The translations under genes were made by a program, and so were the position numbers. DNA of 64,000 bases. It comes from Botryllus schlosseri. Its lineage: Eukaryota. Numbering within the stretch: the first letter of the stretch is position 1; each line of letters opens with the position of its first letter. The notes under the pieces were generated by a model. It saw nothing but the letters and a program-made list of their open reading frames with translations, was not told the DNA's origin and made no database searches. The stretch lies in the NCBI GenBank assembly GCA_051294905.1, contig CM119375.1:19530001-19594000 (forward strand). The letters run 5' to 3'. Positions 25,098 through 64,000 of the stretch are shown piece by piece.

Positions 25098-25184
25098 TTT
25101 GATCCGCTAAAGACGATGGGGAGTTGATCGACACCACATGTCGTATTATTTACTTGCGCAGATACGCGGAAAAGAACATACAAT

Positions 25185-31800: not shown

Positions 31801-32327
31801 CAGATAATTTAAACAAAAAGCAAGATCTACAGGTAAGAACTAAATCAACGTCAATAATTTCATCAGGTGACTATCAGAGCGATCCCACATCAGTAAGTAA
31901 AAATGATGTGATCAGAAGTTGGAAGAGTACTTCCAATAGTGCACTTTCTTCAATTACACCCTCTATCGAAGAAGAAGGAAAAACTACACTCAGTATACCG
32001 CATACCTTACCTACGGCCAGATATGACAGATTGGACCGAATTACATTTGACTTCTATGGACGATTGCACAAACTACACGAAATAGAACAAGGATATGCAT
32101 CAGGTAAAATTATTGTGGATATTAACAATAGAAAGGATTTAGAAGAATCACTTAACAATTATGTCTTGATTTTTGCGGTTAGCGTAACAACAATGGTAGG
32201 ATGTATGTATTTTTGTTATGCGAAATGCGGGAGAGTTGCAGCAAAAAATTATCTTAAAAAGGTTGTTCGGCGGAATAACCAAAAGATGTATATTACAGCA
32301 GTAACATTGCATGAAAAACTGAGATAG
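28845..32327 (+). CDS. Second type I membrane glycoprotein (Env2): Env1-like ectodomain plus Thr/Ser mucin stalk, 1160 aa
   Basis: Signal peptide; motifs shared with the Env1 SU part; ~500-aa T/S-rich region; TM YVLIFAVSVTTMVGCMYFCY; basic tail. Confidence 0.85.
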   Translation: MNRYLKLWIVLAVALTLHRGYLQTHGQLLPLSAMSVRLTFNLTGWTTFRYQGLRYIRLNRLFKLNESWPIGETENNFPIYKETPKFGPTRASQDQLYKLFAPSGSDKRYWNNVRQYERECGCNRKLSRISPDITLAAFTRTTTYRRKNNFGLVHTWKYVVGREEHGTMAVPGPILRMISPNATPQVTIHQLLTVYKLSVMNILAQYATVTARCQQRFEEIAGWRVNKGEFNVCVHGEDNQMQCIGCSFYTEDLAVNILSRDFVVMEIDNSIRGLGTRMQETYSYSQWPVGVKLPRLHHDIVWLKARNETGPRERPANFDGHTWFRLRIYALREHLNNDTQRIMGKRNFPTMLQGSIECERKKNQKVCRNSIGSLKTALAFKEVLYDPYTNQPVYADHSNGRLRIASPKPAGQESPLKAWPKSLPKCKQPGRLGDFILTASFKSNGQNTRNMDYYLARLGMYYVEATKRRLRQLSLPIYKMRRKLGRLDRSITGEEMESLSQALRSALTPQKLSRINEELLSYMSTRKLIEVQFHDIRIFRPSVAYTATICAGILVYTPYAYKDNNKIRTNSEMSLSTAESITTKAVNYEGTTRKVPSSSVMPRSNAEAITTRTVSYEGITREVPPSSETGIWVDINSVVATPEPAVTREKTITITEENVRMTNQYDTNHYNYDYIEGYDEGISYAGYDDNTSFQDAGNYYYDYYDKDGEYNVLLKHRPIQIAYTTDSTNIIETTMALPMIETPTSIKNTQYTTELTTDTTISTSKTSAHTSDSITTTLSTAAITPYTGGLTSAIAISETTSSTSLPAILTTVHSSREDNTGPRPTTSIITFLTTVKTVREQERRRTSPTDIFTTVEPSMAISTEMDTQKSIGIATTGVTFSESGLTTRVPMARSVKARLQWNTMTYQIPSKNGEMLGSLSVPIRKTSQITQIPESYIQLSHHANQIKDTTPPRAHFNMLFDTSQVATTVETHQYFVTSKSRSNTEPDNLNKKQDLQVRTKSTSIISSGDYQSDPTSVSKNDVIRSWKSTSNSALSSITPSIEEEGKTTLSIPHTLPTARYDRLDRITFDFYGRLHKLHEIEQGYASGKIIVDINNRKDLEESLNNYVLIFAVSVTTMVGCMYFCYAKCGRVAAKNYLKKVVRRNNQKMYITAVTLHEKLR

Positions 32328-41700: not shown

Positions 41701-42433
41701 AATGTAATGGCTTTTATGATGGCATCATACGTTTGTCCGCTCATATGGTGTCTATATCTTATAGTTAATTTATGTCAAGTACAACAACAATTCTATTCAA
41801 ATAGTTATAAATATGATGATTCTTTTCGTGCCAGGCCTAAATTTATACAAATCTAAATCATATTTTGGCGATGTGTGGTTACTGTCAGTCTGTTGGATCG
41901 ACTCACTCTCAATAGAAAAATTCATTCCCGCCAAATAAGGCCTACTTGGAAAGACATAGAATACCCCTATAAATGCTGCGGCCCGCGGCGTCGTCCCAAC
42001 TAGGAGAATGGCCCGCAAGCACGTTTGAGTTTGAGACCCCTGTGCTAGATGAAGAAACAGGACACAAAATTGGTACAATCACCTACAATTTTAATTCACC
42101 TGATTATAATTGATAGAAGGTTCTCACTTTGAGCGAGGCCTTATATAAAATACGGATAATGTAGCAGTAAAGATGAACATCGAGATTGATTTAGGATAAT
42201 GGATATCATGGTTATATCCTAGTGTGGCGCATGTAAAAAAAGGGTGATGAATCAAAATAAGACGAATAGCATGATCACTGCGTATTGTGGTGTGAACTCG
42301 CTAAGAAAAAAGAAAGATTCCTGTGGCATTCTTGGAAAATTTATGACACATAGACCTATTACATTTCCACAGACTTGGTATATATAGGGTCAAAAAAACA
42401 GCAATACATCTCTTTGCTGGTATAACTGTAGCC

Positions 42434-44776: not shown

Positions 44777-45637
44777 ATGTGCCACGGGCTATTGTGCAAC
44801 CCTAATACGGATCATAAGGTTGTCCACGAGTGGGCGATGCAGTTCGATGTTATACATAGGCAGCAGATGGTAATGGAAATCATAAAAACTGCGCCGGTAC
44901 GGGATCGGTTGATGAGCATCTTGTTCGGCACCTGTGAGCGAGACAATCCAAGGGTACAATATTGGCAACAGTGTATGTACACCAAGGAGGACTGGACAAA
45001 AACAGGAAAGCCTTTTCAACCGGTTGGGAGCGGTGAATGTAAACAATGTTACCTAATGAAGTACGTAAGACCGTATTTCAAGAATACCGGGCAGATTTTG
45101 GACCTTATGACATTGTGCCATGACTATTTAAAAGAAGCTTGTAGTATGCACAAAGGACTAGATCAAAACACCGAAAGAGATAAAGGACATATAGTGCTTT
45201 ATGTGTTATATCCAGAAGCGATAATAACCGCTATAGCTCTCATGTTGCAACAATATCGGGGGGCAAAAAACATACGAACATTTTGTTTTACGAGATGTCG
45301 GATGGATGCAGAATTTGAGTTCCTATTTGGGGGAAATTTTGAACAATGGAGGTTTACATACGGGTCCACGAGCACGTTTGGTTTTGTGGGAGGCGTTTTT
45401 ATTCTACCGATTGACCAAGTGTCGGAATCAACCTTTAAAAGCTCGTTAAAAAAAGAGGGAGACAAACAATTAGTCAAAAACACCAATTCGGAAACTACAT
45501 TGATGTTTGATATTGAATCTTCAACCAGTGGAGACAGTAGGTTTCCAAACAGACCAGAGGCTCCGACCCGAATGGTAGTTTTACGGAGACCCAGTGTAGA
45601 TGGATCACATGCTGCCTCTAGTGGTAATATGGGCTGA
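44777..45637 (+). CDS. Hypothetical protein, family X (paralog of 48832-49338)
   Basis: 286 aa; MCHGLLC, NPRVQYWQQ, LYVLYPEAII. Confidence 0.75.
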   Translation: MCHGLLCNPNTDHKVVHEWAMQFDVIHRQQMVMEIIKTAPVRDRLMSILFGTCERDNPRVQYWQQCMYTKEDWTKTGKPFQPVGSGECKQCYLMKYVRPYFKNTGQILDLMTLCHDYLKEACSMHKGLDQNTERDKGHIVLYVLYPEAIITAIALMLQQYRGAKNIRTFCFTRCRMDAEFEFLFGGNFEQWRFTYGSTSTFGFVGGVFILPIDQVSESTFKSSLKKEGDKQLVKNTNSETTLMFDIESSTSGDSRFPNRPEAPTRMVVLRRPSVDGSHAASSGNMG

Positions 45638-46967: not shown

Positions 46968-47591
46968 TTGTCATATCCTGAAAACGGTAAATTGTGCGAA
47001 ATTGCTATTTTGTTTGAAAAAAGAATGCTAGATTTTGATTATATTGAAGGTTACGATTCAACAAATTGGTGTCATTTGTACGATGTATATGACGAGTTGG
47101 ATCTATTGAATCTTAAAGAATATAACAGCGAATATGAGAGATACCAGTTTAAAGAAAAAGTATGGGAATTGCTTACGGACCAAGCCGATTGGGTTAAACA
47201 AACAGACGATGGCCTAGAAGAGGTAGCCCTAGATGAGGAATTAACCGAAGAAATTCTTGATAAATTCAACCATGTGGCAGAAGAGATATTTGAAATAAGA
47301 GCAAAGGAATACACCTCTTTGGGAAGAAGAGTCATGTTGTATGAATTAATTAGAGGACTTGTGATGAAACTTACAAACACTAATATAACAAAGGACGTGT
47401 ACCAGGAGAGAGAAATTTGTAAAGATCCGCCACATATGGAACAATGGAATTGTCAGAATAATTTGGGCCTAAAAGGCTATTCAAGTTCAATACATTGGCG
47501 AACAAAAAGGATAAGACGTATAGAAATACATCCTTACCCCTACGAAGGGGAAAGTGTGAACATTGACTCTATAATACCGGAACAATCATGA
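46968..47591 (+). CDS. Hypothetical protein, family Y (paralog of 50610-51269); start uncertain
   Basis: RVMLYELIRGLVM and WNCQNNLGLKGY; TTG start in track, upstream ATG (46954) is out of frame. Confidence 0.72.
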   Translation: MSYPENGKLCEIAILFEKRMLDFDYIEGYDSTNWCHLYDVYDELDLLNLKEYNSEYERYQFKEKVWELLTDQADWVKQTDDGLEEVALDEELTEEILDKFNHVAEEIFEIRAKEYTSLGRRVMLYELIRGLVMKLTNTNITKDVYQEREICKDPPHMEQWNCQNNLGLKGYSSSIHWRTKRIRRIEIHPYPYEGESVNIDSIIPEQS

Positions 47592-47677: not shown

Positions 47678-48727
47678 ATGAGTAAAATGAACCGAGTGGA
47701 ACTACTAGTATTATGGCTAGGCATGTGTTATGCTATTTATCCGGAAACAATAGAACAAAAGAAGTGTACAATGGATGAAAGACGAACCATGTTATACCCG
47801 GAATGCATGCAAGGAAGCAATTTGGTACTTTGGTGTGACCATTCGAGTTATACAAGAATTCCGGATCCTGACAAGATATACTTGGCAAAATCTTGTCGGA
47901 ACACAATAAAGATATTCATCAACGACAGCTGCCTACGGGAAATAACCAAAGGACAATTGGAAAAATATAAAGACGTAGAGGTGTTGCATTGTGGTTGGAA
48001 TAAAATCCAAACCATACCAGGAGGGGTCTTCTGCAAAAATGAAAAGCTTAGGGAGATAAATTTGATGCGAAACTACATCACACGAATTGAAAAAGAAAGC
48101 TTTGCAGGCTTACACCAACTGGAAAGTTTGTACTTAAGCAGTAATTTGCTGGCGGAAATAGAAGGATCGAAATTTGCAAGCATGGAAAAGTTAAAAAGAT
48201 TATATTTGGACAACAATGTCATAAAGAAACTAAAGAATGGAACATTCATTCATTTACGTCATTTAAGAATACTAGACTTATCAAGAAACGCAATAAGCGC
48301 TATAGAAGAAGGGGCGTTCAAAGGACTGAGGAAACTGGAAACTTTGAACTTGGATGAAAATAAACTGGTGGAATTTGATATGACAATACTTGAATCTTTA
48401 TGTAATTTAGAGAGATTAACGTTGTACTATAATAACTTGCAATATTTTTCTCTGTCCTCCAACATATCGTTCAGATATCTGCATACAATTGATCTTAGTT
48501 ATAATCATGTTAAATTTCTTAATGACTCCCTATTGAGAAAATTACCAGATCTGGAAGTTTTAAAATTAAATAGATATAATAATGAAACACCTACCAGAAG
48601 ACCCTATGTACGTAAACAATCAAGACTATATGATGACGAAATGAAAAGTCTTTCCAATCGTGTGACTATACATTCAAAGTGTACATTTACCGTTATTGTT
48701 TGGCTAGTTATTATTAAACTAATGTAA
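47678..48727 (+). CDS. Intronless secreted/membrane-anchored leucine-rich repeat protein
   Basis: Signal peptide, ~8 LxxLxLxxNxL repeats, N-terminal Cys cap, hydrophobic C-terminus. Confidence 0.9.
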   Translation: MSKMNRVELLVLWLGMCYAIYPETIEQKKCTMDERRTMLYPECMQGSNLVLWCDHSSYTRIPDPDKIYLAKSCRNTIKIFINDSCLREITKGQLEKYKDVEVLHCGWNKIQTIPGGVFCKNEKLREINLMRNYITRIEKESFAGLHQLESLYLSSNLLAEIEGSKFASMEKLKRLYLDNNVIKKLKNGTFIHLRHLRILDLSRNAISAIEEGAFKGLRKLETLNLDENKLVEFDMTILESLCNLERLTLYYNNLQYFSLSSNISFRYLHTIDLSYNHVKFLNDSLLRKLPDLEVLKLNRYNNETPTRRPYVRKQSRLYDDEMKSLSNRVTIHSKCTFTVIVWLVIIKLM

Positions 48728-48831: not shown

Positions 48832-49338
48832 ATGTGTTTGGGATTACGTTGTGATGATCCAGAAATACAACATACGACATGGATACCCCAAAAAGAAATA
48901 CTAATAGACAATGGATTAAAGTCGCTGAAGTTTCTGTTAACAACATATACATTGACGGATCACTTATGTGATATAATGTATAACGAATCAAATCCACGAC
49001 TACTATATTGGAAACAAAAGTATGGTGTCACCACATACAACAATCATTGGCCTGGGAAACATCTGGTTGAAAATGAGTGGGAAGAAATTTATACAGGAAG
49101 CATTTACCCTGAAAAACCTATACAAATGGCTTTTGCAGAAATTTGCATAAACTGGGTAACAATTTTGAAAAGGGTAAATCCTGAAATGAGGGAATTTCTA
49201 AAAAGGGGAGATTCTGAAAGAGATCTCATAATGTGGATAATCTTTCCGGAAGTTCAGATCTACGCATGGGCAAAGACGCAGGGAATATCATTAAAAGAAG
49301 CCGATTGTCAATTTATGACTTTGAAAGTGCCTGCATGA
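48832..49338 (+). CDS. Hypothetical protein, family X
   Basis: 168 aa; MCLGLRC, NPRLLYWKQ, MWIIFPEVQI. Confidence 0.75.
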   Translation: MCLGLRCDDPEIQHTTWIPQKEILIDNGLKSLKFLLTTYTLTDHLCDIMYNESNPRLLYWKQKYGVTTYNNHWPGKHLVENEWEEIYTGSIYPEKPIQMAFAEICINWVTILKRVNPEMREFLKRGDSERDLIMWIIFPEVQIYAWAKTQGISLKEADCQFMTLKVPA

Positions 49339-49407: not shown

Positions 49408-50356
49408 ATGAAGACTAAAGAATCCAGAAAAAGAAAAAAATCTATTCAATCTTGCTCGATGTGGTATAATATCAAGTGAACGAAAATGTATAAAGTTTCT
49501 GCGATCACGGCAACTCCTTGTTCAAAAGGCAACATGTTTTAATTGTGGACAACAAATGAATGAAGAAAAATGCAAAAGAACTATGGATGGATGTAGATGG
49601 AGGTGTCCGGTTTCAAAGTGCAGGACTACCACGTCCATAAGGAAAGGATCACTATTTGAAGGAAGTAAAATAAGACTCACCCAACTTGTAATGATGATTT
49701 ATCTTTGGACCATAGATGTATCTCAACGACAAATAGCTTTTGAAGCACACGTCAGCAAGAGAACAATGGTGAATTGGACCAAGAAACTTCGTAAGATATG
49801 CTCTGTGGAAATGGAAAGAAGAGGTACCCTAATAGGGGGAATATCACAAGGTAAATCACATGTAATTCAAATTGATGAGACGTTTGTGGCCAAAAGAAAA
49901 TTTAATCGTGGAAGAATAATACGCCAACGCTGGGTTTTGGCTGGAATAGATATGAAAACGCGAGAAATGTTTGCAGAATTGGTACCTGAAGAAGGGAGAA
50001 AAACCTCTGTATTATCAGAAATAATTATGAAACACGTAAAAGAGGGATCCACTATATGGACTGATTCATTTGCCAGTTACCGCAAGTTGGAAAGCCTGGG
50101 AATGAATTATAAACATTCAGTAGTTAATCATGATCGCGAATTTGTCACTACAGAAGGCATAAATACACAATTGATCGAGGTGTCTTGGAATTTTTTTAAA
50201 GCTGCTATTAGAAGGCTGAATGGGGTATCAAGATCACTTATTCCTCATTACTTACAGGAGTGGCTCTGGAAAAGAAGGGTGGCCTTGGAGGAAAGGTTTC
50301 AACTATTTTTAGAGATAATTGCTCTTGATCCTAATTTTAGGACACTGGAACATTGA
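49408..50356 (+). CDS. Merlin/IS1595 DDE transposase #2; 5' end appears frameshifted in an A7 run (49434-49440)
   Basis: QIDET / WTDSFASY / QLIEVSW triad; frame of 49556 is open upstream to 49412 and encodes CFNC of the Zn ribbon; ATG 49408 joins it after one A is removed. Confidence 0.85.
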
Positions 50357-50609: not shown

Positions 50610-51269
50610 ATGTATCTATCTGAAGTACAGGATCATAATACTGCTATTTTTTGTAAATTAATAAATCAACTAGATAAAATCGACGTGCGAAAAAATGCTG
50701 GATGTCTAAAGTTGCTGATGGATATGTTGAAAAACTTTTTTGAACAAGAACATAATTGGTACAAAAGACAACTTCCATGTGGCGACAGGAAACCCCATGG
50801 AGAAACGCCGGAGGACGAAATTTCTAGTAATACGGACTCTGACGACTCCCAGGATTCTGCCATTGTGAAAGATTCCTCAAGACAACGACTCATAGTATGG
50901 AGTAAACAGACAATACGACCCGATGACGACACATGGACTATAATTACGGAAACTTTGATGGGAGTTGTCCGAAGAATACCTCCCCTATGTATGAGACGAG
51001 TAATATATGAAGTGATACGAGGAGTAATAATGGGCCATACAAGATTGTTAGTATGTGCAAATAGTCTGGCTTATGTTACAGATGCGAATTGCAAATGGAC
51101 TTGGCACAGCCAAACCAACCTAGGAGTAAAAGGTTATATGTCGTTGAGTTCTGATACCTCCGTTATGGATGCATATATATACATATACTCGAAGAAAGTA
51201 GATAAGAAAGCCCAGTCAATGAATCAATATCTGGAAAATTCCTATATTTTGGACATACATCTCCATTAA
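50610..51269 (+). CDS. Hypothetical protein, family Y
   Basis: 219 aa; RRVIYEVIRGVIM, WHSQTNLGVKGY. Confidence 0.75.
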   Translation: MYLSEVQDHNTAIFCKLINQLDKIDVRKNAGCLKLLMDMLKNFFEQEHNWYKRQLPCGDRKPHGETPEDEISSNTDSDDSQDSAIVKDSSRQRLIVWSKQTIRPDDDTWTIITETLMGVVRRIPPLCMRRVIYEVIRGVIMGHTRLLVCANSLAYVTDANCKWTWHSQTNLGVKGYMSLSSDTSVMDAYIYIYSKKVDKKAQSMNQYLENSYILDIHLH

Positions 51270-51508: not shown

Positions 51509-53200
51509 ATGGGCATTCTGATGAAAAGAGATCGTGATCCTCCTGGACATAATTGCGTTTATATTCCACCTGGAGATCACCGGGTTGAGTATTACAGACT
51601 TGCAACGTTCAAACATTTTTCGAAAGAAACTCCTGTGATACCGAGCTATCTAGCCGCTGCTGGTTTCTATTGGACAGGATTTCAAGATAGAGTAAGATGT
51701 TACTGCTGTGGCGTATCTGTGGAAAAATGGGTCACTGGAGATGATCCTTTTGATGACAAGTGGCATAAATCTACTTGTGACATGGTGACCATACAACATG
51801 GTTATAACTTGCCTATTTCAAATTGCTCAAGGAGGCTCCTTTTTGAACAAATGAGGTGCCACCTTAACCTTACTACAAGAAGTCAGCAAACTAATCGGAA
51901 TGTGCAAAGACCGACTATCAAAGAGGAAAAATGTCCCTTACCACAAACCGTGTTTGCGAACATTTGTGACCAAGAACATGAGACTTCATTGCGATCAGCA
52001 AATTTGAGGAGTGAACTAGAGAGAAGAAGAACCTTTGACAAATGGCCTTCCTATCCTACTCCATACTTGGTAGGGGAATTGGCAAAACAGGGGTTTTTTT
52101 ACCTGGGAAACCTTGACAGAGCGCAATGTTTTTCATGCTCAGGAGTACTGAGAAATTGGGCACCCACTGATAATGTCCTTGAACAACATAAAAGACATTT
52201 TACAAAATGCAAAATGGCAAATAACGAGTATGCAGGAAATATGCCCTTGACAGACTCCGAGAGAAATCAGGCAGATAATGAACTTAAAATAAAAATTGAA
52301 AGGTTAACTACTAATAGGGGAGAACCTCCGGATCCATCGCCAGAAGAACAACTCCAGTTGGTGGAAAGATTCCCTTGCCTTTACCCGATAAATTTGCATA
52401 TGACATCGTTACAGCAAAGAATATCTTCGTTTAATGAAAAATGGCCCAGGATCCTCGCAACAACGGAACAATTGGCTAAAGCGGGTATGTATTATCTAGG
52501 GGATTCGGACAGGGCGAAATGCTTTTACTGCAATGGAGGATTACAAAACTGGAACTACAATGATGAGCCGTGGACAGAACATGCAAAGTGGTTTCCTGGT
52601 TGTGAATATGTTTTGCAAATGAAAGGTATTGATTTCGTTTTACGACTAAGAGATGAACATCCCAATCTCAATCGACCATCGATAAGGAATGCAATATGTC
52701 TTGATGCACCACGAGAGGAGATACGAAGGAACCATAATCGACCAAGGTTATCTAGACAATACATAAACAGGATGCAACTGGAAGACATGGGATTTACGAG
52801 AGATCAAATAGAAGGAACTATAAATAGACAGATTAATGATCCTTTCTCTACTGGTGATATAATTCAGGATTTACTAGAGACAGTAAATACAATTACCGCC
52901 AGTCCAACGAAAACAACACAACAAGGCGATAGTATATCTGAAAATAATCACGAAGTAAACAACAACAAAGAAACGAAAGAAGCAGCAGTTGCAGAAATAA
53001 TGTCGGTGGATGAGATCGCGCAAAATTTGAAAGAAATACAAGAAGTTGTGCTTTGCAAAAATTGCAAGAGAAACAAAAGTGAAATTACTTTCATACCTTG
53101 TGGACATTTATGTAGTTGTGAAAAATGTGCAACAAATACTGAAAGATGCAACATTTGTGGTGAAACAATACTTGAAAAGATAAAGGTGTATAGAGCTTGA
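51509..53200 (+). CDS. iap: Intronless inhibitor of apoptosis protein (3 BIR + UBA-like + RING)
   Basis: Three R..[T/S]F..W..LA..GF/MY..C..C..W..H..C BIR repeats; C-terminal CxxC..PCGH..C..C..CxxC RING. Confidence 0.95.
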   Translation: MGILMKRDRDPPGHNCVYIPPGDHRVEYYRLATFKHFSKETPVIPSYLAAAGFYWTGFQDRVRCYCCGVSVEKWVTGDDPFDDKWHKSTCDMVTIQHGYNLPISNCSRRLLFEQMRCHLNLTTRSQQTNRNVQRPTIKEEKCPLPQTVFANICDQEHETSLRSANLRSELERRRTFDKWPSYPTPYLVGELAKQGFFYLGNLDRAQCFSCSGVLRNWAPTDNVLEQHKRHFTKCKMANNEYAGNMPLTDSERNQADNELKIKIERLTTNRGEPPDPSPEEQLQLVERFPCLYPINLHMTSLQQRISSFNEKWPRILATTEQLAKAGMYYLGDSDRAKCFYCNGGLQNWNYNDEPWTEHAKWFPGCEYVLQMKGIDFVLRLRDEHPNLNRPSIRNAICLDAPREEIRRNHNRPRLSRQYINRMQLEDMGFTRDQIEGTINRQINDPFSTGDIIQDLLETVNTITASPTKTTQQGDSISENNHEVNNNKETKEAAVAEIMSVDEIAQNLKEIQEVVLCKNCKRNKSEITFIPCGHLCSCEKCATNTERCNICGETILEKIKVYRA

Positions 53201-53329
53201 TGGAGCAGGCAGGACTATTATTTTGTGGCATGAATGCTCTTGATGCATATGTATAATGCATAACGTTACTAGTTACTTTTGCGCGTAAAATTGAACATAT
53301 GATTTTAAAGTATTTTATTCTGTATTAAG

Positions 53330-53785
53330 ATGACTAGAGTATTAGAGAATTGGGAAATTACGCTAGCCAAGAAACAAATTAATGAATACTATGATGAGTT
53401 TGAACAGGAATACCATCATCAAAATTTTGAAATATGGAAAAATACCCCAAAGGAAAAATTCAAACAATTAATAAAGAAATACCTTCATCATTGTTTTGCG
53501 AATGTGACAGAAAAGCTTTTTGATAAGCTTTATGACGCACATAGTGATATTGCTCGCGTTTTTGTTACAAAAGATTTTAATCTGGCCCAATATACATGGT
53601 TTGGACTTGTTCTAAAACTACATCCGGCTCATAAATATCTACCAGAAGAATTTCTGGATGAAAGATTACCACAAATGGAATTGCAAGATTCTACAACATT
53701 ACTTCTAAATGCTCGAGAATTTGAAACTGTTGCTGTTCCAATTTTAGAAGACGCTTTTTCGAAAATTGTTATACTGCACGATTAA
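53330..53785 (+). CDS. Hypothetical protein, family Z subtype A
   Basis: 151 aa; paralog of 55470-55928. Confidence 0.78.
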   Translation: MTRVLENWEITLAKKQINEYYDEFEQEYHHQNFEIWKNTPKEKFKQLIKKYLHHCFANVTEKLFDKLYDAHSDIARVFVTKDFNLAQYTWFGLVLKLHPAHKYLPEEFLDERLPQMELQDSTTLLLNAREFETVAVPILEDAFSKIVILHD

Positions 53786-53790
53786 GAGGA

Positions 53791-54186
53791 ATGTCTCGAA
53801 GAACCATGAGTAACCAGGAAATATTGCAAATGGGACATGAATCTGCAGTGTGCGACTTGAAATATTATTTTGACATGTTTTGTAAATACTATGAAGAAGA
53901 TGTGGAAATTTCCGACAGATGGCAAAGATGGGCTATGACAAGACCCAATGACATTGTTGGAATGCTGACGCTGTATATTGATAAAGTTTATGGGAGTGCT
54001 TTGTCTCCGCAAGGCAAGGCTCGGGGGTATCATGCTGCTATCAAAGAACATAATAGGATTGCAATTATTACACTGGGAAACTATAAGGAAGCCAAATTTC
54101 TTTGGTACCAACATATTGTTCGTATGCATCCCATGAAGGAGAACTTTTCAGAACAATGGATAAAAGGATGTTTGAAAGATGATTAA
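53791..54186 (+). CDS. Hypothetical protein, family Z subtype B
   Basis: 131 aa; paralog of 56094-56543. Confidence 0.78.
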   Translation: MSRRTMSNQEILQMGHESAVCDLKYYFDMFCKYYEEDVEISDRWQRWAMTRPNDIVGMLTLYIDKVYGSALSPQGKARGYHAAIKEHNRIAIITLGNYKEAKFLWYQHIVRMHPMKENFSEQWIKGCLKDD

Positions 54187-54293
54187 CTGAAATGATACAT
54201 AGACTGCACCAAATTTACTATATCTAATATAACAACTAGAATTAAAACTTTTATTTGTGTAGTCATGTTGATTTACTGATTAAGACTTTTTGA

Positions 54294-54818
54294 ATGTTTA
54301 ATAATGTTTGGGTTTTTTGTGTAAGAAATTTTAAGACATTAGGAATTTATTTGACCTTTAATCGTGATATGTTGGAAATCAATTATGAAAAGTACGAATA
54401 TGTGCCCAAAGACCCACAAAAGAAAGAATTGAACCGAAAGAGGTTCAGACCGTGTCTATACCCTACGATACCTGACAGCAGAGTTGCTTGGCTAAAGATG
54501 GGAGTTGTACATGAACGAATAAAAGAAAGAATAGAAAACTTTCCGAAGTTAACAGCCAATGACATGGAGTATGTATTGAAAGACTTTCTTGTCTGGTTAT
54601 ACCGGGACCATGAGGTGGCGGAACAATTGGAATGCGCAAAAAAAGTACTGGAGCGCATTGTGGAAGAAAACTTTGGAGAAAGTCCTGCGTACTATTTGTA
54701 CTTATTTCTACGATATGTATTGGCTATAGCTAATGTTGATGAAGATTGGAACATTACTAGCAGAACTATTGCCGGATTTTCACGTGACATGTACGCTATG
54801 GATAAACGATTGAATTAG
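54294..54818 (+). CDS. Hypothetical protein
   Basis: 174-aa ATG ORF inside the cluster, no recognised motif. Confidence 0.65.
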   Translation: MFNNVWVFCVRNFKTLGIYLTFNRDMLEINYEKYEYVPKDPQKKELNRKRFRPCLYPTIPDSRVAWLKMGVVHERIKERIENFPKLTANDMEYVLKDFLVWLYRDHEVAEQLECAKKVLERIVEENFGESPAYYLYLFLRYVLAIANVDEDWNITSRTIAGFSRDMYAMDKRLN

Positions 54819-54878
54819 TGATGTTCCCCTTTTCTTTTATGTGTGTAAGTTTTATTGGATAGTATAAGTCTGCATCGA

Positions 54879-55334
54879 ATGGCAAAACATAGATTATACG
54901 TTGAACGGCGAAAAATTAATCAAGAAATACGAACAAATCCTGTAATTTTGCAAGCAGGGCCATTGGACGAGTCGGATATCTATGTTTGGCAAGCACTTTT
55001 GCGAGGACCATCAAAAACACCATATGAAAAAGGAACATTTCTTCTTAGAATTGAATTTCCAACGGAATATCCATTCAAGCCTCCGAAGATCAAATTTGAA
55101 ACCAAGATTTTCCATCCGAATATAAGCCGTAAGGGTACCATATGTATTGACATTCTTGCCGATGAATGGTCTCCCGCTTTAACGTTGGGAAAAGTATTGG
55201 TCTCGATTTCGTCATTATTGGCTTCCCCTAACCCAGAAGATCCAATGGATGTTGAGAGCGCCAGACTGTATCGGGATGACTATGAAAGTTATCAGAAGAT
55301 GGCAAGAAACTGGACTGATATGTATGCTAAGTAA
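54879..55334 (+). CDS. Intronless ubiquitin-conjugating enzyme E2 (UBE2D/Ubc4-like)
   Basis: GP..TPYE.G.F...I.FP.EYPFKPPK..F.TKIFHPNI..G.IC(catalytic)IDIL..WSPAL. Confidence 0.95.
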   Translation: MAKHRLYVERRKINQEIRTNPVILQAGPLDESDIYVWQALLRGPSKTPYEKGTFLLRIEFPTEYPFKPPKIKFETKIFHPNISRKGTICIDILADEWSPALTLGKVLVSISSLLASPNPEDPMDVESARLYRDDYESYQKMARNWTDMYAK

Positions 55335-55469
55335 TTACTATGTATCTAGTATGCTTATCACAATTATTGAATATTTTGGAAATGCTGTTATACTTATATG
55401 TATTAAAAATGTTAGCAAGGAAAGTTTCCGGTCCGATAATCAACGTAAAATTTTCTATATTAAGAAAAT

Positions 55470-55928
55470 ATGGGTGAAAAAATTGCTAGAGTAAAGCATG
55501 AACTTGACGTGTTCTTCGATTCATTTGAAAAGAAATATGAACATAAAGATTTCGGCAAGTGGGCTGCAACAACACGGGATGAATTGGAGATATTTATGAC
55601 ACCTTACTTGAGGATTTGCAACCTGAGAGTATCCGACAGACTGTTTGATGCGCTATACAAAAAGCATTTAGCTATCGCCCGCATGATATTGTTTGAAAAT
55701 TATGAACATGCGAAATTTTGTTGGTTCGTCTTCTGTGTTGGATTACATCCTGCCTCAGATGTAATACCTGAAGGATGGGTGTTGGAAAGAATGCCTGACT
55801 CTGATAAAACTGGATTTTGTATCTATACCACGGAAAAACTCTTTTATGATACTTTTCCCTCTGATGTGAGAGCTGCTATACTTATACATAAAATGAAATG
55901 TTATGGCTGTAATAATAATGGACAATGA
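55470..55928 (+). CDS. Hypothetical protein, family Z subtype A
   Basis: 152 aa; FFDSFEKKY, LFDALYKKH, WF....LHPA. Confidence 0.78.
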   Translation: MGEKIARVKHELDVFFDSFEKKYEHKDFGKWAATTRDELEIFMTPYLRICNLRVSDRLFDALYKKHLAIARMILFENYEHAKFCWFVFCVGLHPASDVIPEGWVLERMPDSDKTGFCIYTTEKLFYDTFPSDVRAAILIHKMKCYGCNNNGQ

Positions 55929-56093
55929 ATTCATGGATTGTATATTGTATTTTATGCTAAATCAAAATATCTATTAAAATTATGTATGACATGTATGCCA
56001 ATTTATTGAGTGTTGCATTGAGTTACTTCATTTTCGTCTGCATAACCCAATGGACCCTTATTAGGATTATTAATATTTTTCAGAAAATTAAGT

Positions 56094-56543
56094 ATGAGTA
56101 ACGTGATAATAAATGATAATGGTGACGTTGATGTCACCAGAATGGTGGGCTCCAATGTGGCGGAACAAGATTTGATATTTTATTTTTGGCTATTCAAAGA
56201 ACGATATGAAGCGAGAATACTCCCCTCTCATAGATGGTACGAGTGGTCAAAGACTCCACCCAAATATATCAAACTTGGATTGAAATGTTTTTTCAAACGA
56301 ATTAAAGAAACTCTTTCTGATGAGAAGCCCCTTGTTATTGACTACCAAGGAATACTAGAAAACCATAAAATGATAAGAGACATGGCCTCTGGAAATTATG
56401 AAAAGGCTAAACTTTTGTGGTTCAACTATATGACTCGAATGCATCCTATGGAAAATTTGATCACGGATGAATGGGTGAAGGAACAAGCCGAATCTACGGA
56501 ACCCTTTTATCCTGAGGATACTATAGATGTCTTAGTTCAATGA
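56094..56543 (+). CDS. Hypothetical protein, family Z subtype B
   Basis: 149 aa; GNYEKAKLLWFNYMTRMHPM. Confidence 0.78.
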   Translation: MSNVIINDNGDVDVTRMVGSNVAEQDLIFYFWLFKERYEARILPSHRWYEWSKTPPKYIKLGLKCFFKRIKETLSDEKPLVIDYQGILENHKMIRDMASGNYEKAKLLWFNYMTRMHPMENLITDEWVKEQAESTEPFYPEDTIDVLVQ

Positions 56544-56823
56544 GAAATATTAAGCCCAGGAATGCTATTGTTTTCATGTATGTATATAAAGTGTTATAAC
56601 TGACCTACGGAATATAGAATGGTCAAGAATCTCTATTGCGTCTTGCATAGAGTCATTTTATTGTATTTTGTTGCACAGAAAATTGATTCCGTCACGTTCA
56701 CGGTTTATTGAGTGGTTTGGTCAACCTATATTCAGAAATGTTTTACAGTTTGTACGGATTATTGCTGCTTTGCTAACTGCGAATGAATTTAATACTGTGG
56801 GGCCTCGTCATCCCTACAGTATG

Positions 56824-57675
56824 TATATAAGGCGTTATACACTGCTACGCCCTTATTTTTAAGCAGGACCCTAGGGATTGAAGCCCTAGTTTTAGGGAAA
56901 CAAAATCCGAAGTTTACGGTGCGAACCCTTATTATAGGCTAAATAAATAATTAATGAAAAACAATATAAAATCTTATAAAATCTTGAACAACTAAACCAT
57001 TAAATTAACTAAATAATGAACACTAAAACCTGTTTGAACAATCTGCAATGCCTGTATTAAGTGGCATCTAAGTTAAGGGTAGTATCATGCGGTCCGATTA
57101 AGAGGATCATAGTGATTATAATTGCACTGAAGACATGACGTCCTTAATGTTGATATGTTATATTAAAATTGATTGAAACATTATAATCGCAAGTATACTG
57201 AAGAATATTATGATGAATAGGAATTGATATTTGAAATGCATTGATATTTACGGCAGGAAAGGCCGTCGCATCAATTATATGCGAAAACAAACCTTGGAGT
57301 ATTAAAAATGTTTATTAATTGTGTATGATGATGTATAGGTTAAACATGCCTTGTGTTATAATTGATGGATGATGTGTATGCCAATTTTAACCAAGCTTTG
57401 CATAGAGTTACCACATTTCCGTCTGCGCAATTAACTGATTGGAGTATTTGGTTGTATTAAGATTATCAGTAGATAAAGGTAGATTAAAATTCTGGACCCC
57501 AGGGTCATTGTCAACTTGAGAAGAAACAATCCTACAACTGTTGTTGCTCCAATCACCATTTACAGACGTCGTCAAGATATTAAAGCAAACGAAAGGCAAC
57601 GCTTTACTAGGAAGTAACCCGAACAAGTGTGGACTACTCGCATGACAATCGTTGTGGAGCTGCACTATAAAAACA
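56824..57675 (+). promoter_or_regulatory. Candidate LTR core (end of U3, R, U5): TATA 56824-31, AATAAA 56942-47, terminal ...AAAACA 57675
   Basis: TATA, poly(A) signal and CA end in canonical order immediately before the PBS. Confidence 0.6.
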
Positions 57676-57679
57676 AAAT

Positions 57680-57699
57680 TGGTGGCCAGTACGGGGATC
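57680..57699 (+). promoter_or_regulatory. Primer binding site complementary to tRNA-Ile(AAU) 3' end
   Basis: tggtggccagtacggggatc is the reverse complement of GATCCCCGTACTGGCCA+CCA; 4 nt after the CA. Confidence 0.9.
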
Positions 57700-58005: not shown

Positions 58006-60822
58006 ATGCGAAGGATGTTGAAAGCATTCAAAAGGAAAAAGCCGTCAGAAGCAACAGACGAACTCAAACAAGGGATTACCTTGCTTAAAGCTACACAAAA
58101 ACGCCATGAAGATGTCCGGCGACAAGAAAGACAACTGGCTAAGGACGTGGCTGAACAGACAGAGCTATTGAAAGAGGTAAAGACAGCTCTGCCGGAAACC
58201 ATGAAAGGGTTAGAAAAGGCAAAGAAAGAGGTTCGAAAAGCTCAAGCAGACCTCAAAGCTGTTTGTGATGCCACAACAAAAGTTAGCGGAAAGGTCTCCA
58301 CCGACGTGCTGAATGACATCCTTAAGTCAGAGTTCGAGCTCGGAAGGTCGCATGCTCAGGCTACGCGAGATAGCGTCCAATCTCCCGTTTTGACAGTAAC
58401 TCCCAATGCACCAGAACATGATCCTCCGGCTTACGTCCCGCTCGCTGAGCAGCCGTCGGATAATGTACAACCAGGACCAACAATGACGGTCCGTAAGGGT
58501 CTGGATTGTCATACTGTGACGGCTGTCTATCCTAAATTACCACGTTCTGATTCATCCTCGTTGTCAGACTCTCAAATAGGGACGACACCATGCTTCCATA
58601 TTGGCAGTGGTGCGCGCCCCAAACAAAAAGACGGTAACCCAACAACGATGGGAACAAGGGCGAAACCTGCAAAAAGTTCCTTGAGTAACTATAGGGGATA
58701 TCAAGGTTGGCAAGAAGGCCGCAATTCGAAGACAGAATCACGTATAAAAGCGGATGGCGCTTCACAACGTGTTACCTTTCGTAGTCCAGGCGAGGAACAA
58801 TCTGCCGCAGAAGACAGTGAGGTCGACTTTCAGACTCGATTAAAGCATCTTTCCAAAGAATTAAGAGATAATATAAGGTCTCTACGGGGCGGTGCCAGCC
58901 CTCAGGATTCTGCGGATGAATCTAGCGAGGAGGAACCTGCCGATATCTCTCGTTCTCCTGATACACCTCGCGCTACCTCCACTCCAAAAGAGTATGGGGG
59001 AAGGACTAGGCGACAACGGCAGCAACAGCTACATAAGAATTCTGGTGGTTTTGCCCCAGTACTTAATGTATCTGCTAAAATCCAGTCAGAAAAAGAAATG
59101 CTTCAGCTTATGATGGACCCTGGGGACATGCCACTGCTAAAATGGATGGAGAATTCGATGCGAAGAATACGCCACGGTCCTGGAAATACGGATGTGGATG
59201 TTATTTTGGCTAATGCACTGCAGAAGAAATTGAGGGCTGCTGGTCGACACAAACAGGCTACCCAACTGGGAAATTTTTTTAATACCAATTCGGGGGAAGC
59301 AGAATGGGAATCGGTGATGCGATCTCTTTCCTTGTCCAATCCCCAGGGTTTGGTAAATGACGAAAAGATCATTGGAGAATTCCGCAGAAATTATCGCTGG
59401 GAGGATGAGCCGCTACCTCGGCTGAATAGCGCCTTGAAGCAACTAGAAATAGACATGGATAGTCTTATTGAGGATAATCCAGATGGATTACGTCTTTTCC
59501 GAAATTTACGACAACGCCTTCCGGAAGCGCTCAGACTGATGTTGCGAGGCTGGGAAGAGGATAAAACTTGGCGGGACGTTGCGGAGGAACTACAACTTGT
59601 TTGGAACTCCGAGTTCCTGGATGAACAAGAGACACGCCCCAGGTATCAGGAAACAAAGGAAGTCCTTGATACAAAACCGTCATTGCCGCCAGTACACATT
59701 TATAATGTTCAACCTGCAGGACAAATAGTGCACAGTTATCCCACTCATGGAAGAGAGGACAGTCAGCTCAACACTCCTCCTCCACCTGGTGACACCCCAC
59801 CGCCGGTGGTACAATCACCCTCGCCCCTACAACCACTGAATAACTTTGGGGGGGCAACACCTCCTGGATCACCTAGGGGGATCTCACCGCGTCAGCTTGC
59901 TAATGCAGACCAGGTACCGTTACAACGTCGGAATCCTCAACGTAAAGCACGCAACAATCGATTTCCCACCCGCATCATGAATGGTAATGGAGTTGGTAGG
60001 CGTGGACAAGGCCCGAGGGCCAGGCCAGTACACCAACAGGATGGGCGTAACGCATCATCGAGACCTAACGGACAGCCAACAAGAACAACAAGATCTTCAC
60101 GCGCTAGTCCAGGACCGGAAACCGCAAACCGAAGTCCGCGAGTGGCGAATACGCAAGATTCCGGGATGGGTGCAGACAACTCACAAATTACGCCGTCCAG
60201 CAGCCAGGAAGCCCGCAACATTGCGGATAGTCAAGGTGAGAGATACAATTTTCTTGGAAACCCGAATATTTTCGCTCCTCTAGGATTGTATCTAAATCCC
60301 ACTCAGGGACAATCCCTGTCCGTTTGTTACTACTGTAAGGCACCGGGACATCAATCCCGAAATTGCGTGGCTAAGTTCATACTGTGGCTAAACGATAAGG
60401 TTCTTGCTAGGGATGAGGAATTAGGATGGGTAATTCGTGGGCGAGCACGACCTGTACCCCCTCATGTTAAAGAATCTGCAGAACGAAACTGGAAACCGTT
60501 CCTTGCGAGAAATAACATACTAACAATTGAAGGACTTGATCGATATCTGGCTGCTCAAGGTTCACCCTCGTTTACACAGAGGACCGCTCTGTGCGAAGCC
60601 TATTATGATACCAGACCAAAAAACCGAGATAGAACCCACTGGCATGATAGGGATCAATGGGGTCCTCATGGACCACCTGCACGTCCATCTGGGGGAAATA
60701 CCCAAGTGGCCTGGACGAAACCTCAATATCATGATCGGCCGCGTCAATATGATGCTTCATATTGGACGGACGAGGAACTGAATCAAGGTATACGACTTTC
60801 AAAAAACGCCTTGGGGTGCTGA
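58006..60822 (+). CDS. gag: Gag-like polyprotein, 938 aa
   Basis: Position between PBS and pol; N-terminal coiled coil; PPAY and YPKL motifs; CYYCKAPGHQSRNC zinc knuckle (60325-60366). Confidence 0.88.
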   Translation: MRRMLKAFKRKKPSEATDELKQGITLLKATQKRHEDVRRQERQLAKDVAEQTELLKEVKTALPETMKGLEKAKKEVRKAQADLKAVCDATTKVSGKVSTDVLNDILKSEFELGRSHAQATRDSVQSPVLTVTPNAPEHDPPAYVPLAEQPSDNVQPGPTMTVRKGLDCHTVTAVYPKLPRSDSSSLSDSQIGTTPCFHIGSGARPKQKDGNPTTMGTRAKPAKSSLSNYRGYQGWQEGRNSKTESRIKADGASQRVTFRSPGEEQSAAEDSEVDFQTRLKHLSKELRDNIRSLRGGASPQDSADESSEEEPADISRSPDTPRATSTPKEYGGRTRRQRQQQLHKNSGGFAPVLNVSAKIQSEKEMLQLMMDPGDMPLLKWMENSMRRIRHGPGNTDVDVILANALQKKLRAAGRHKQATQLGNFFNTNSGEAEWESVMRSLSLSNPQGLVNDEKIIGEFRRNYRWEDEPLPRLNSALKQLEIDMDSLIEDNPDGLRLFRNLRQRLPEALRLMLRGWEEDKTWRDVAEELQLVWNSEFLDEQETRPRYQETKEVLDTKPSLPPVHIYNVQPAGQIVHSYPTHGREDSQLNTPPPPGDTPPPVVQSPSPLQPLNNFGGATPPGSPRGISPRQLANADQVPLQRRNPQRKARNNRFPTRIMNGNGVGRRGQGPRARPVHQQDGRNASSRPNGQPTRTTRSSRASPGPETANRSPRVANTQDSGMGADNSQITPSSSQEARNIADSQGERYNFLGNPNIFAPLGLYLNPTQGQSLSVCYYCKAPGHQSRNCVAKFILWLNDKVLARDEELGWVIRGRARPVPPHVKESAERNWKPFLARNNILTIEGLDRYLAAQGSPSFTQRTALCEAYYDTRPKNRDRTHWHDRDQWGPHGPPARPSGGNTQVAWTKPQYHDRPRQYDASYWTDEELNQGIRLSKNALGC

Positions 60823-60844
60823 TTGATCCGGTGAATCAGCTCCC
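60801..60844 (+). other. Programmed -1 ribosomal frameshift signal
   Basis: A_AAA_AAC heptamer in gag frame (60801-07), 5-6 nt spacer, stem GGG.GCTGATT / AATCAGC.CCC; pol is in the -1 frame. Confidence 0.85.
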
Positions 60845-63800
60845 AGACAATTTAATAATTCAACATACAAAAACTGTACATAACTCATCATTACCCTTAT
60901 TTACATTTCTTGATATGCCGGATGACCCCCTACAGCCCGACTTTACGGAATTGTTTGGAGGCCAGTTGTTGTATTTAATTGATACAGCGACTGGTACAAA
61001 ATTCCTAGCTGACACGGGGAGCATCCCCAATTTGATAATGAAAAAGGTCGTTATAACTAAATATCCACGAAGCTGGGAAAAACGTCAACCAATAGACATG
61101 GCATTAACTGGAATAGGTGGCTCGTCCCAAGTGGACTCTTTTGTAGTGATTGATATTGGTGGACTGCCCGTTCCATTTGTAACCGGACCAGGAGTCCCAC
61201 TTAATATCGTAGGGCTGAAATGGATTGAGGAAGTCCAACAATTACCAGGCGTAACTACGGAATTCAAAACCCCGTCTAACGCAAATGAGGAGCTGTCTTT
61301 AGCATCATTACTCGAAGGGAATCATTATGACCAAGGTAACGGAACCGAAGTTGGAAGCAGTACTAGCTACACTGTAACCAACGATGGGTTGATGGATGCT
61401 GCAAACCAATTTAGCGTGGAGCGGAAAATGGCCGTTGGCGCGAGTACCGAGATGGAAATAACCACTGGTGCGAGCGACGAGTTGAAATTAGCAACTTACG
61501 TCACACAGAACCCATGGGAAACTATAGGTGTTGAGACAGGAATGCCTGCTGACACCGTTAAGGAAGACGTCGAGCGTGGAATCCCCGCTGGCGTAAAGAT
61601 GGACCTGCACGAGAAAACTGGTCCAGAACACTCTCGCGGATGCACTTATCCGGATGACGATAGGAATCTGGCCCATAGTTGCATGGCGACTACTACAACT
61701 GACATCCAGAGCGAAATGTCCTCTGGCGAAAATAAAGACCTGCATGAGAAAACTGGTCCTAAGTGCCTTCGTGGATGCACTTGTCCGAATAACCTTAATG
61801 ATTCGGCCCATAGTTGCATGACGACAGCCGCAGTAATGAGTACTTTCCCAAAAGGTTCAAACGAAGCAGCAATTGCCGGTCAACCGGATGTACATCCGGA
61901 CATGTCCGACAAGGAGTCTGGGGATTTTATGATGCACGTCTCCCCAGAAAAAGGGTCCCCGGCGGAAAAGGAGTCCGTCGGCGTGACGGTAGGTGCGGGC
62001 ACGCGCCGAGATCAGAGGCCTACATCGAAGGACCTCGCCCTCTCTCCACCAACACCAACAACTCGGTCATCACGAATCTCAAATCAGCCTATGGCTGGGC
62101 CAGTAACCACGTATGTTTTGCAGAAAGACACTCACCCGCGAGTCAAGACGGAACTTGAGGATCTCTGCGCAAAATCCGTGGCGCTGGCCAAACTCCCATA
62201 CAAACCTCCTGATCTGACGACTCCAGAAAACACCATTATTGCTGATGATGTTTGGAAAGCCGTCTACACACCGTTCGCGTCTGAACTCGAGGACCTGCGA
62301 GGCCATCTTGGCGGCCCGCAAACCATGAAATACAAATGCGACATCGAGCTTAAAGATCCCTCGACGAAACCGTTTGTGTCTGGTCCTTATAATCTGAAGG
62401 GGAAGGGCCAGGCGAAAGCATTAAAAGAAGCGGTAGACAATTTCCTGGATTTGGGCGTCATTGAACGAGGCTTTGCCGAATGGAAGTTGGCTATATTTGT
62501 GGTCCCTCAGAAAATGAATGAGAGACAGAAACAGGAGGATGGATGGAAGCAGGCCTGGAGAGTAGTACAGAATCTCCAACCCCTTAATGCGGCCATAAAA
62601 TCAATAGAAGTACCTCCACCTCTTGTACCGGACGTAAAGCAGCTCGCCCAAGGCAGAGAAGTGCTTTCTCTCCTTGATTTGAAGAAGGCCTATTTCCACA
62701 TGGACGTAACGGAAAGGTCTAAACAATATGTGGGCATAGCCATCAAAGGAATGCACGTAAGATGGCGTAAGATGCCGATGGGGCTAAAGACCGCGGTGGC
62801 TCTTTGGTCTGCGAATATGCAAGAATGTGTGGTGAAACCTATCACGGAAAAATACCAACAACACATGAAACAAGTTGGCAGGACAGATGAGGAGAATGCG
62901 ACGCCTATGGAGGCCTACATAGACGACATTTTTCTCAGCACAAGAACGGTAGAAGACCACTTACTGCTGCTACGCATGGTATTTGAACAGCTCGCCAAGA
63001 TGAAACTGACGGTTAGCATCAATAAGTGTTTCATTGGAAAGCGAAAAGTGAACCTTTTGGGGGCAACCTTGACGGGGAAAGAAATTGAGGTTCAGCCCGA
63101 AAGATTAAGGGCTTTACGCGAACTCTCACCACCCCACAATGTATACGAGTTAAGGGGGTGGATTGGCGCACTTCGCTATATTTCGGAACATATTCCTGAG
63201 TTAAGCTTGAAGCTGGCCAAATTCGATGCGCTGACAGGCAAGGTCCCTGCGACACAAGGACGAGTGACGCCTGTGCTATGGACCAACGAATTACTGCAGG
63301 ACTTCAAAACGGCACAAGCAGCCCTCGAAGATGCTAAGGTTCTGTATCATCTGGATCCAAATCTTTCCATTTTTGTGGAAACGGACGCTTCAGATATTGG
63401 ATTTGGATCAATTATTTTCCAGACGGAAAAAGGGTGTAAACCACCGTTCGGAAAGGTTTACCCAATTGCTTACTACAGCCAAAAGTGGGCGACTCCAACG
63501 GCAAAGGCTTATGACCCATGTACAAAAGAATTGAAAGCCCTAAAAGATTCGGTGGAAAAATGGCAATCAATGTTGAGAGCCTTACCCTTTACAATAATTA
63601 CTGATAATACTGGGGTTTTTGGGCTCCTCAAAAGAATGACGGACAAAGCGAAAAATCCAAGCCCAAAACCCCTAATTCAGAGGTGGCTCAATCATCTAGC
63701 AGGATTCCAAATAAAGGAGGTAATTCATCTAAGTACGATGCAGGTATTTACGTCAGATGGATTGTCCCGTTCTTATTGGATGGAGATGGCTGCGGGAGAA

Positions 63801-64000
63801 GATGATCCACATGTTTGGGCGACGATTCCCAAGAAAAAGGGCGTTTCGAACCGACATAAAAGACCCCGACCGGAAAAAATACAGCAGATACTGATGTATC
63901 ACTGTCGACATGAACTTTGCGACAACTCGGTGAACGGGTTCCATCCTTGGGAAGATATTTGCAGTATCTTTCAAAAGAAAACTGGTGAACAAATGGAAAT
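60801..64000 (+). CDS. pol: Pol polyprotein, 3'-incomplete: aspartic protease, long spacer, reverse transcriptase, RNase H
   Basis: Not in the ORF track; translated by hand with no stop over ~1066 codons. FLADTGS (61011), LDLKKAYFH, MPMGL, YIDD (62916-27), TDAS/KEL/ITDN/RW..L/DGLSR. Integrase not reached. Confidence 0.95.

Follow-up and report, generated by a model that had tools for sequence, protein, structure and literature searches.

A 64,000-nucleotide stretch of the Botryllus schlosseri genome (assembly GCA_051294905.1, contig CM119375.1, positions 19,530,001 to 19,594,000 of the forward strand; hereafter the window) holds four small open reading frames (ORFs) in the order A1, B1, A2, B2, which raises the question of what this gene family is and which genome it serves. 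A first, sequence-only reading took it for a novel tandem family of a large DNA virus, shaped by conflict with the host. The four genes are found to belong to an element of 39.8 kb that is present in many copies and carries gag, reverse transcriptase (RT) and transposase genes; within it they form two clades, A and B, are under purifying selection, and stand upstream of a leader copy, a transfer RNA (tRNA) primer site and gag. Overall, they are read as old paralogs in the cargo block of this element, likely soluble helical proteins that modulate host proteins, and this reading is given a probability of roughly one half. That A/B are accessory genes of the element is close to certain. Their role as host-modulating adaptors, proposed from neighbours and position, is more tentative and falls somewhat short of even odds.

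Homology within the family was assessed by comparing the local alignment scores of ORF pairs with 2000 shuffles. The pairs A1-A2 (z 32), B1-B2 (z 31), A2-B1 (z 19), A2-B2 (z 14) and A1-B2 (z 8.5) were each reached by 0 of 2000 shuffles, and the weakest pair, A1-B1 (z 5.7), by 1 of 2000. All six pairs are significant, and the coordinates, the A-B...A-B order and the motifs quoted in the sequence-only reading are confirmed. ORF C was considered as a fifth member and rejected, with z 0.5-1.0 against A1, B1, A2 and B2. An alignment of 16 members, namely the four of the window and 12 natural relatives, has F, Y, W, H, W and an H-P pair as its invariant columns; of the previously described F...Y...W..T motif, the F, Y and W are invariant and the T is not. 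A tree of the 16 rows separates eight A from eight B sequences with a split support of 100/99. A1, B1, A2 and B2 are homologous and fall into the two clades. Identity amounts to 29% for A1/A2, 27% for B1/B2 and 17-29% between A and B, and a self-BLAST of the element gives no DNA match between A/B coding regions; the duplications are therefore old. A recent segmental duplication of the block was rejected on the same grounds, so that the two A-B pairs of the "duplicated cassette" noted earlier remain, while its origin as a recent block copy does not. Duplication is general in the cargo block, as two further paralog pairs show (47025-47591 with 50610-51269, z 9.4; 44777-45637 with 48832-49338, z 8.5).

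The bounds of the element were set by comparison with copies on C14 and C8 and are common to the three copies at 96-99.6% identity. The right end lies 635 bases beyond the window (19594635 on the contig), and the termini read GG...CC. The genome contains 40 matches to the left end and 44 to the right end. Among the best 30 of each, 23 of 30 left ends are paired with a right end, 19 of them with exact 8-bp target-site duplications, one with a 9-bp duplication, one with a mismatched duplication and two with none. For another copy of the element, DNA and RNA runs contain an empty-site joint. A long direct repeat or pair of long terminal repeats (LTRs) was not found in the self-comparison of the element. 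B2 has 25 matches at 75-100% identity in the 495-Mb genome, the window's own included, and nearly all own-genome matches of three single-protein searches pair as element cassettes; the sole fragment fetched outside such cassettes (L120) is broken.

Across 24 copies chosen by their B2 match, a choice that favours intact cassettes, the ORF is intact in 21 (A1), 22 (B1), 24 (A2) and 23 (B2), and the neighbouring cargo genes are intact in 20 (IAP), 22 (C) and 23 (E2). The mean pairwise ratio of non-synonymous to synonymous substitutions is 0.14 for A1, 0.19 for B1, 0.135 for A2 and 0.26 for B2, at a synonymous divergence of 0.21-0.26. Purifying selection acts on all seven cargo genes tested among these recent copies (A1, B1, A2, B2, IAP, C and E2). 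The same ratio estimated with a maximum-likelihood codon model (omega, Table 1) is far from 1 for each A/B gene (twice the log-likelihood difference 68-179), in fits made with the authors' own code over 115-151 codons, where recombination is present and power is limited. The test for positive selection, run on the copies, thus gives purifying selection and no class with omega>1, and the signature of a host arms race is not borne out. The copies are mosaics, with between-gene distance correlations of -0.02 to 0.65. The window and the C14 copy, for instance, differ by 2.9-6.1% over A1-B1-C and by 0-0.2% in IAP, E2, A2 and B2.

The last slot of the cassette is variable, and two copies carry a different B (B3) that is 34-38% identical to B1 and B2. 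A second element family (family 2) has the order pol, env, X, A, B, leader, tRNA-Gln site, gag, and an X-like gene precedes A-B both there and in one subfamily. A4 and B4 of family 2 are 37-39% identical to A1 and B1, about as near as the pols of the two families are to each other (38-44%), which suggests from sequence comparison that A/B have been exchanged between element families. No Merlin transposase match was found in the family 2 stretches fetched. In eight other sampled elements, a profile search of the 20 kb upstream of the pol end, which leaves the larger elements partly uncovered, gave no A/B match at E<=1. The leader copy is present in seven of the eight, and in two of the eight a transposase directly follows pol. 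A/B are regarded as accessory rather than core genes because none of the eight shows them. Further features of family 2 were noted in passing. A 235-aa ORF and a 108-aa membrane-type ORF lie between pol and env (L163:1733-2759, L210:3-653), and inverted gag copies lie on both sides of the C3 copy. A 6.2-kb inverted repeat (99.8%) with a 1-kb loop interrupts the pol (L163:3813-10000/L164:1073-7261), and it contains what look by eye like remnants of OB-fold-like ORFs. Apart from these features, tRNA-Gln-like 3' ends stand in tandem on C7 (23.46-23.48 Mb) at a spacing of ~150 bp.

Downstream of B2, the stretch 56544-57679 is read as a single LTR-like region. B2 ends 0.9 kb ahead of an exact copy of the host leader, which is followed by the tRNA-Ile primer site and gag. 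The RNA data comprised two single-cell runs and one bulk run, picked by species label, with reads sampled at 3-6 in 100. Thousands of reads start at the sequence of 57438-57461 after the template-switch oligonucleotide and then run into unrelated sequences, and the leader copy is likely to be the 5' end of the element RNA. It is present in 20 of 20 copies (L001-L020) and in other element families, and its distance to the primer site is 242-294 nt. The window copy alone lacks 7 bases ending in AG directly after the leader. This gap fits re-splicing at a nearby acceptor, and a small deletion would fit equally. The 24-nt leader is presumably of the stolidobranch-ascidian type; the Ciona leader, with 16 nt, is the sole one given in the papers found. 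Sense-side reads, many from diverged copies, pile up just ahead of the leader in the two single-cell runs, as expected if transcripts end there. The leader copy also precedes gag in families with otherwise unrelated flanks (L119, L209, L212, L217, L219, L221, L223, L225, L226), and at two loci a partial second copy (3' half) directly follows the first.

Element RNA would begin at the leader copy, run through gag, pol, transposase, env and cargo on a circular map, and end near the leader again. The integrated element would then represent a circle opened between pol and the transposase gene, that is, a circularly permuted RNA genome, with the DNA circle being opened and inserted by the Merlin transposase. 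Copying by such an RNA-circle-transposase cycle, in which the element would behave as a retrovirus whose integration enzyme is borrowed, is considered probable. The RNA step is supported by the leader copy and tRNA primer site, by the use of a different tRNA (Gln) in family 2 and by the mosaic copies, and the permutation by the gene order of family 2 and by the elements in which the transposase directly follows pol. On the circular map, A/B would be the last genes of the RNA, the position in which complex retroviruses keep their accessory genes.

As held by the sequence-only reading, the setting resembles that of a virus and the proteins belong to no recognisable known family. None of the four passes in a Pfam scan (best E 0.063), PHROG profiles reach a best E of 0.002 in one of 16 members with no family common to more than four of the 16, and the sequences of solved structures (PDB) reach E 0.35 at best. 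Of 244 candidates from a word-index search with the four-protein alignment, four were matches, with 71-76% identity to one window member each; all sit on short contigs, and no homolog was found beyond these. A HMMER scan of 1.84 billion representatives gave three matches, all among the same four relatives. Relatives among longer proteins were not seen in 5921 candidates, which is weak evidence, and a phage tblastn search with B1 gave no match. The ESM Atlas linked A2 (recognition 1924) to bacterial and phage hypothetical proteins at 0.91-0.93, matches that were judged weak and not used. AlphaFold2 predicts A2 as all-helical with a pLDDT of 82, and B1 as all-helical with six helices and a pLDDT of 92. 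For these models, Foldseek returns E>=0.76, predicted viral structures included, and the best VIA hits, with Z 5.2 (root-mean-square deviation 3.8, 83 aligned) and Z 7.0 (4.0, 95 aligned), are in the range of common helical arrangements. No fold family listed, cyclin box included, stands above background, in a comparison that discriminates poorly among helical bundles. The four proteins lack a signal-like N-terminus and membrane segments (Kyte-Doolittle maxima <1.4), are neutral to acidic (net charge -10 to +2) and contain no basic tract or zinc-binding motif. The conserved aromatic residues form a compact core. On these features, A/B are likely to be soluble helical proteins.

A/B may act as non-catalytic adaptors, probably in an anti-apoptosis/ubiquitin arm together with the neighbouring IAP, which has a RING domain, and E2. 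The suggestion draws on A/B being optional, selected, soluble and interleaved with the IAP-RING and E2 genes, and on the precedent of the Burro elements discussed below. Several results weigh against this picture of the proteins and the element. No homolog, family or fold match points to a function of A/B, and host conflict, still the likeliest role, is proposed, like the adaptor function, from neighbours and position rather than from selection or homology. The family 2 pair has neither IAP nor E2 beside it, which weakens the ubiquitin link. Host-facing proteins often show a site class with omega>1, the weight of which is here ~0 from free and fixed starts. One subfamily has a different A (A3) in the last slot with no B after it (L118), and of the two copies of family 2, one carries A4-B4 and the other (L209) A4 without a B; A-B pairing is therefore not obligatory. 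A clear polypurine tract is absent between B2 and the leader, a pattern of joined ends has 0 matches in the genome, and no circle junction occurs among the read joints listed. RNA depth over A/B is low and mostly sense, at 0.4-6.5 in the two single-cell runs and <0.7 in the bulk run, and the joints listed include none from the leader to A/B. The choice of copies by B2 and the partial coverage of the larger elements also count on this side. The last five bases of the leader, TTAAG, occur <=12 bases ahead of the start codons of A1, B1, C, A2 and B2 (53320-56093).

Table 1. Features of the element and its surroundings; positions are counted from the first base of the window.
Feature	Position	Strand	Remarks
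Target-site duplication, left copy	24865-24872	.	8 bp; right copy 636-643 bases beyond window
Element left end	24873-24895	+	Imperfect ~23-bp terminal inverted repeat starting GG
Merlin/IS1595-type DDE transposase 1	25128-26111	+	PF12762 E 7e-10; D, D, E motifs located
env-like ORF 1	26241-28757	+	838 aa; hydrophobic N-terminus, basic cleavage-like site, C-terminal hydrophobic stretch; no Pfam match; putative identity
env-like ORF 2	28845-32327	+	1160 aa; weakly similar to ORF 1; putative identity
ORF X	47025-47591	+	Paralog of 50610 (z 9.4)
Leucine-rich-repeat (LRR) protein	47678-48727	+	PF13855 E 5e-76; hydrophobic ends
Second IS1595-type transposase	49412-50356	+	PF12762 E 2.5e-17
Intronless IAP	51509-53200	+	Three BIR + RING; PF00653 E 3e-59, PF13920 E 4e-9
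A1	53330-53785	+	151 aa; A clade; omega 0.20
B1	53791-54186	+	131 aa; B clade; start 5 bases past A1 stop; omega 0.17
ORF C	54294-54818	+	174 aa; not a family member; purifying selection
Intronless E2 ubiquitin-conjugating enzyme	54879-55334	+	PF00179 E 4e-48
A2	55470-55928	+	152 aa; A clade; omega 0.16
Non-coding motif before B2	55974-56041	+	~70 bp; 77% identical to pre-leader motif 57356-57426
B2	56094-56543	+	149 aa; B clade; final gene ahead of LTR-like region; omega 0.30
Host spliced-leader-like copy	57438-57461	+	Exact, 24 nt
Primer-binding site	57680-57697	+	18 nt, complementary to tRNA-Ile(AAT) 3' end
gag-like ORF	58006-60822	+	938 aa; CCHC knuckle; PF00098 E 5e-4, just under curated cut-off
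pol	60753-64000, +370 bases past window	+	RT (YIDD), RNase H, C-terminal Tpt1/KptA; PF00078, PF17917/PF17919, PF01885 E 6e-11

The genes of the element follow in the order transposase, two env-like ORFs, unknown ORFs, LRR, second transposase, IAP, A1, B1, C, E2, A2, B2, a small hydrophobic ORF, gag and pol. A protease-like motif in pol was read by eye. No integrase family was matched in pol, which ends in the Tpt1 domain PF01885 where an integrase would be. Seven pol relatives from other assemblies (P0005-P0011) are 36-46% identical, six of them annotated with the Tpt1 family, and this type of pol is thus more widespread than the genome of the window. In that genome, pol, whose C-terminus past the window end is L071:1050-1500, has 137 matches in many identity classes. 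A marine metagenome contig (L177) carries a related gag-pol that is 51% identical in RT and near-identical to P0005. In the cargo block, both members of the pair 44777/48832 weakly match PF20886 (E 1.5e-5 and 0.007, under cut-off), and a weak Bcl-2 match (E 0.044) is seen for 47025. In run X23, three RNA reads with two starts connect the host leader with an acceptor at 49367, just upstream of the second transposase. The window positions 33500-42400, ~9 kb nearly without long ORFs, are ~96-98% conserved between copies, and in the C8 copy (L038/L039) a ~7.7-kb insertion breaks env-like ORF 2. Derivatives of 10-14 kb (L101-L108, L112-L117) keep both ends, leader, primer site and gag, have lost RT, RNase H and transposase, and are likely to be non-autonomous.

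The main rival for the element is DNA transposition of a swallowed retrovirus: a cut-and-paste Merlin transposon would have taken up a retrovirus-like genome, with A/B as cargo kept by older selection. The Merlin hallmarks described in the available part of PMC8101967 are present, short copies without leader or RT (L109/L110, L111 and a ~12-kb group) keep exact ends and target duplications, and a circle junction was seen neither in the genome nor among the joints listed. Such a history is unlikely, if less so than the other alternatives, as all seven tested cargo genes are under purifying selection among recent copies, and the primer site and leader are conserved across families that show permuted orders and gene-scale mosaicism. 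One of the short copies, of 14.7 kb (L109/L110), was considered as a core free of A/B and dropped, since the leader is also missing; it is probably a deletion derivative and no proof that A/B are dispensable.

With the RNA-circle-transposase cycle retained for the element, A/B could still serve the element itself. They might be trans-activators or RNA-processing factors beside a promoter-like region, similar to the 3' accessory proteins of complex retroviruses. That A/B lie immediately before the LTR-like region in the two families is consistent with this, as are selection that is purifying rather than diversifying and the walleye virus rv-cyclin, which controls its own promoter according to the available text of PMC3185748. 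On the other side, the proteins are neutral to acidic without a basic or zinc-binding motif, neither a cyclin box nor a DNA-binding fold stood out in fold searches that discriminate poorly among helical bundles, and A/B were not detected in the eight related elements with the same leader/gag/pol layout. The idea is rated a rather unlikely one. Improbable, and a step further down, is a role as structural or assembly helpers, possibly as an A-B heterodimer, in the particle, in budding or in the packaging of an RNA of such size. The order with A ahead of B, which three independent slots preserve, the 5-base A1-B1 spacing, the deep A/B split (100/99) and the compact conserved aromatic core would suit such a pair, whereas A stands without B at L118 and L209, A/B are not detected in other intact-looking families, and a long distance separates the genes from gag on the inferred transcript.

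That A/B were captured from the host or are neutral passengers is highly improbable. IAP, E2 and LRR neighbours are host-type genes, but own-genome matches of A/B lie nearly all in element cassettes, the L120 fragment is broken, and omega is far <1; an exon-wise search, in which only the best candidates were scored, saw no multi-exon host ortholog. Large DNA viruses have intronless, dense, same-strand ORFs and carry IAP, E2 and LRR genes. The same combination, with several paralog pairs, speaks for the view of A/B as a multigene family of such a virus diversifying under host conflict. This view is now the least credible of all and largely refuted as a description of this locus, a multi-copy RT element in an animal genome with gag, RT and transposases as neighbours. 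A Pfam scan of 22 ORFs shows neither a DNA polymerase nor a capsid or packaging gene, predicted viral structures give no match, and a class with omega>1 is absent; the view survives as a possible ultimate origin in an unsampled DNA virus.

If the reading of A/B as host-modulating cargo of a reverse-transcribing element is true, such an element can drop integrase and paired LTRs, borrow the enzyme of a DNA transposon and reach 40 kb. Elements of this kind would also evolve accessory gene families of their own, as is known from complex retroviruses and from large DNA viruses. Being small, under selection, modelled with confidence and without known relatives, A/B offer a tractable entry to antiviral defence in invertebrate chordates; their binding partners would name the host pathway that is countered. 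A bolder and more doubtful proposal, ranked below the adaptor role, is that of a virus of sea-squirt-like animals, enveloped and reverse-transcribing, from a class not yet described, with a single internal LTR-like region headed by a host leader, a DNA circle and a Merlin transposase replacing integrase. In such a virus, A/B would be a new helical fold family, swapped between lineages at the RNA 3' end, that disarms host cells together with the virus's own IAP and E2.

In the literature searched, with subscription papers and Repbase outside the search and the supplements of PMC8101967, PMC12440569, PMC11673190 and PMC13524379 able to list such elements, neither the A/B family nor any RT-Tpt1 element bearing Merlin ends was found described. 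According to the available text of PMC8101967, the Merlin superfamily and IS1595-like elements have GG termini, short terminal inverted repeats (TIRs), 8- or 9-bp target duplications and a DDE_Tnp_IS1595 transposase. The present element likewise has GG termini, short, imperfect TIRs, 8- or 9-bp duplications and a DDE_Tnp_IS1595 transposase, and differs in its size of 40 kb and in carrying two transposase genes, gag, a pol of the RT-RNase H-Tpt1 type, env-like genes, a primer site, a leader copy and the A/B cargo. With LTR retrotransposons and retroviruses it shares gag, RT, RNase H and a tRNA primer site ahead of gag, as well as a protease seen by eye. Unlike these, it is devoid of two terminal LTRs and of a pol integrase. 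Its envelope genes are putative, recognised by sequence features.

A comparable case among the 3' accessory genes of complex retroviruses is walleye dermal sarcoma virus, in which orf a and orf b are paralogous and lie between env and the 3' LTR. Both systems have paired small accessory genes and a helical fold, which in the virus is a helical protein-binding fold in orf a (rv-cyclin) and orf b, and the viral accessory proteins have roles in transcription and cell survival, as far as the accessible part of PMC3185748 describes them. A sequence or fold link between the two was not found, A/B are about half as long, the host is an invertebrate and the element has no integrase. Giant env-bearing Ty3/gypsy elements, such as Burro (PMC6431247) and errantiviruses (PMC13524379), have gag-pol-env and a size of >30 kb in common with the element, in the portions of these papers available. 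The planarian Burro retroelements are described there with BIR, BCL2-like and ubiquitination domains (PMC6431247), so that BIR and ubiquitin-related accessory domains occur in both systems. Those elements have two LTRs and an integrase, whereas the present one has neither, its pol ends in Tpt1 and its cargo genes are separate ORFs. In Teratorn, a fusion of piggyBac with a herpesvirus in the accessible account of PMC10175614, the enzyme of a DNA transposon likewise delimits and inserts a virus-like genome; that genome is a DNA herpesvirus, while here reverse-transcribing genes are combined with a Merlin enzyme. Troyka and Kuafuorterviruses are also an animal RT lineage outside the classic families and are reported in ascidians (PMC12440569 and PMC11673190, text as available). 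Membership in Troyka/Kuafuorterviridae was rejected, as those possess LTRs, an integrase, duplications of 3 bp and an I/V/LADD motif but no env, in contrast to the YIDD, 8-bp duplications and env-like genes found here. Set against these systems, A/B are a new lineage-restricted accessory family in an element that shows the Merlin features tested and departs from LTR elements in its lack of paired LTRs and integrase.

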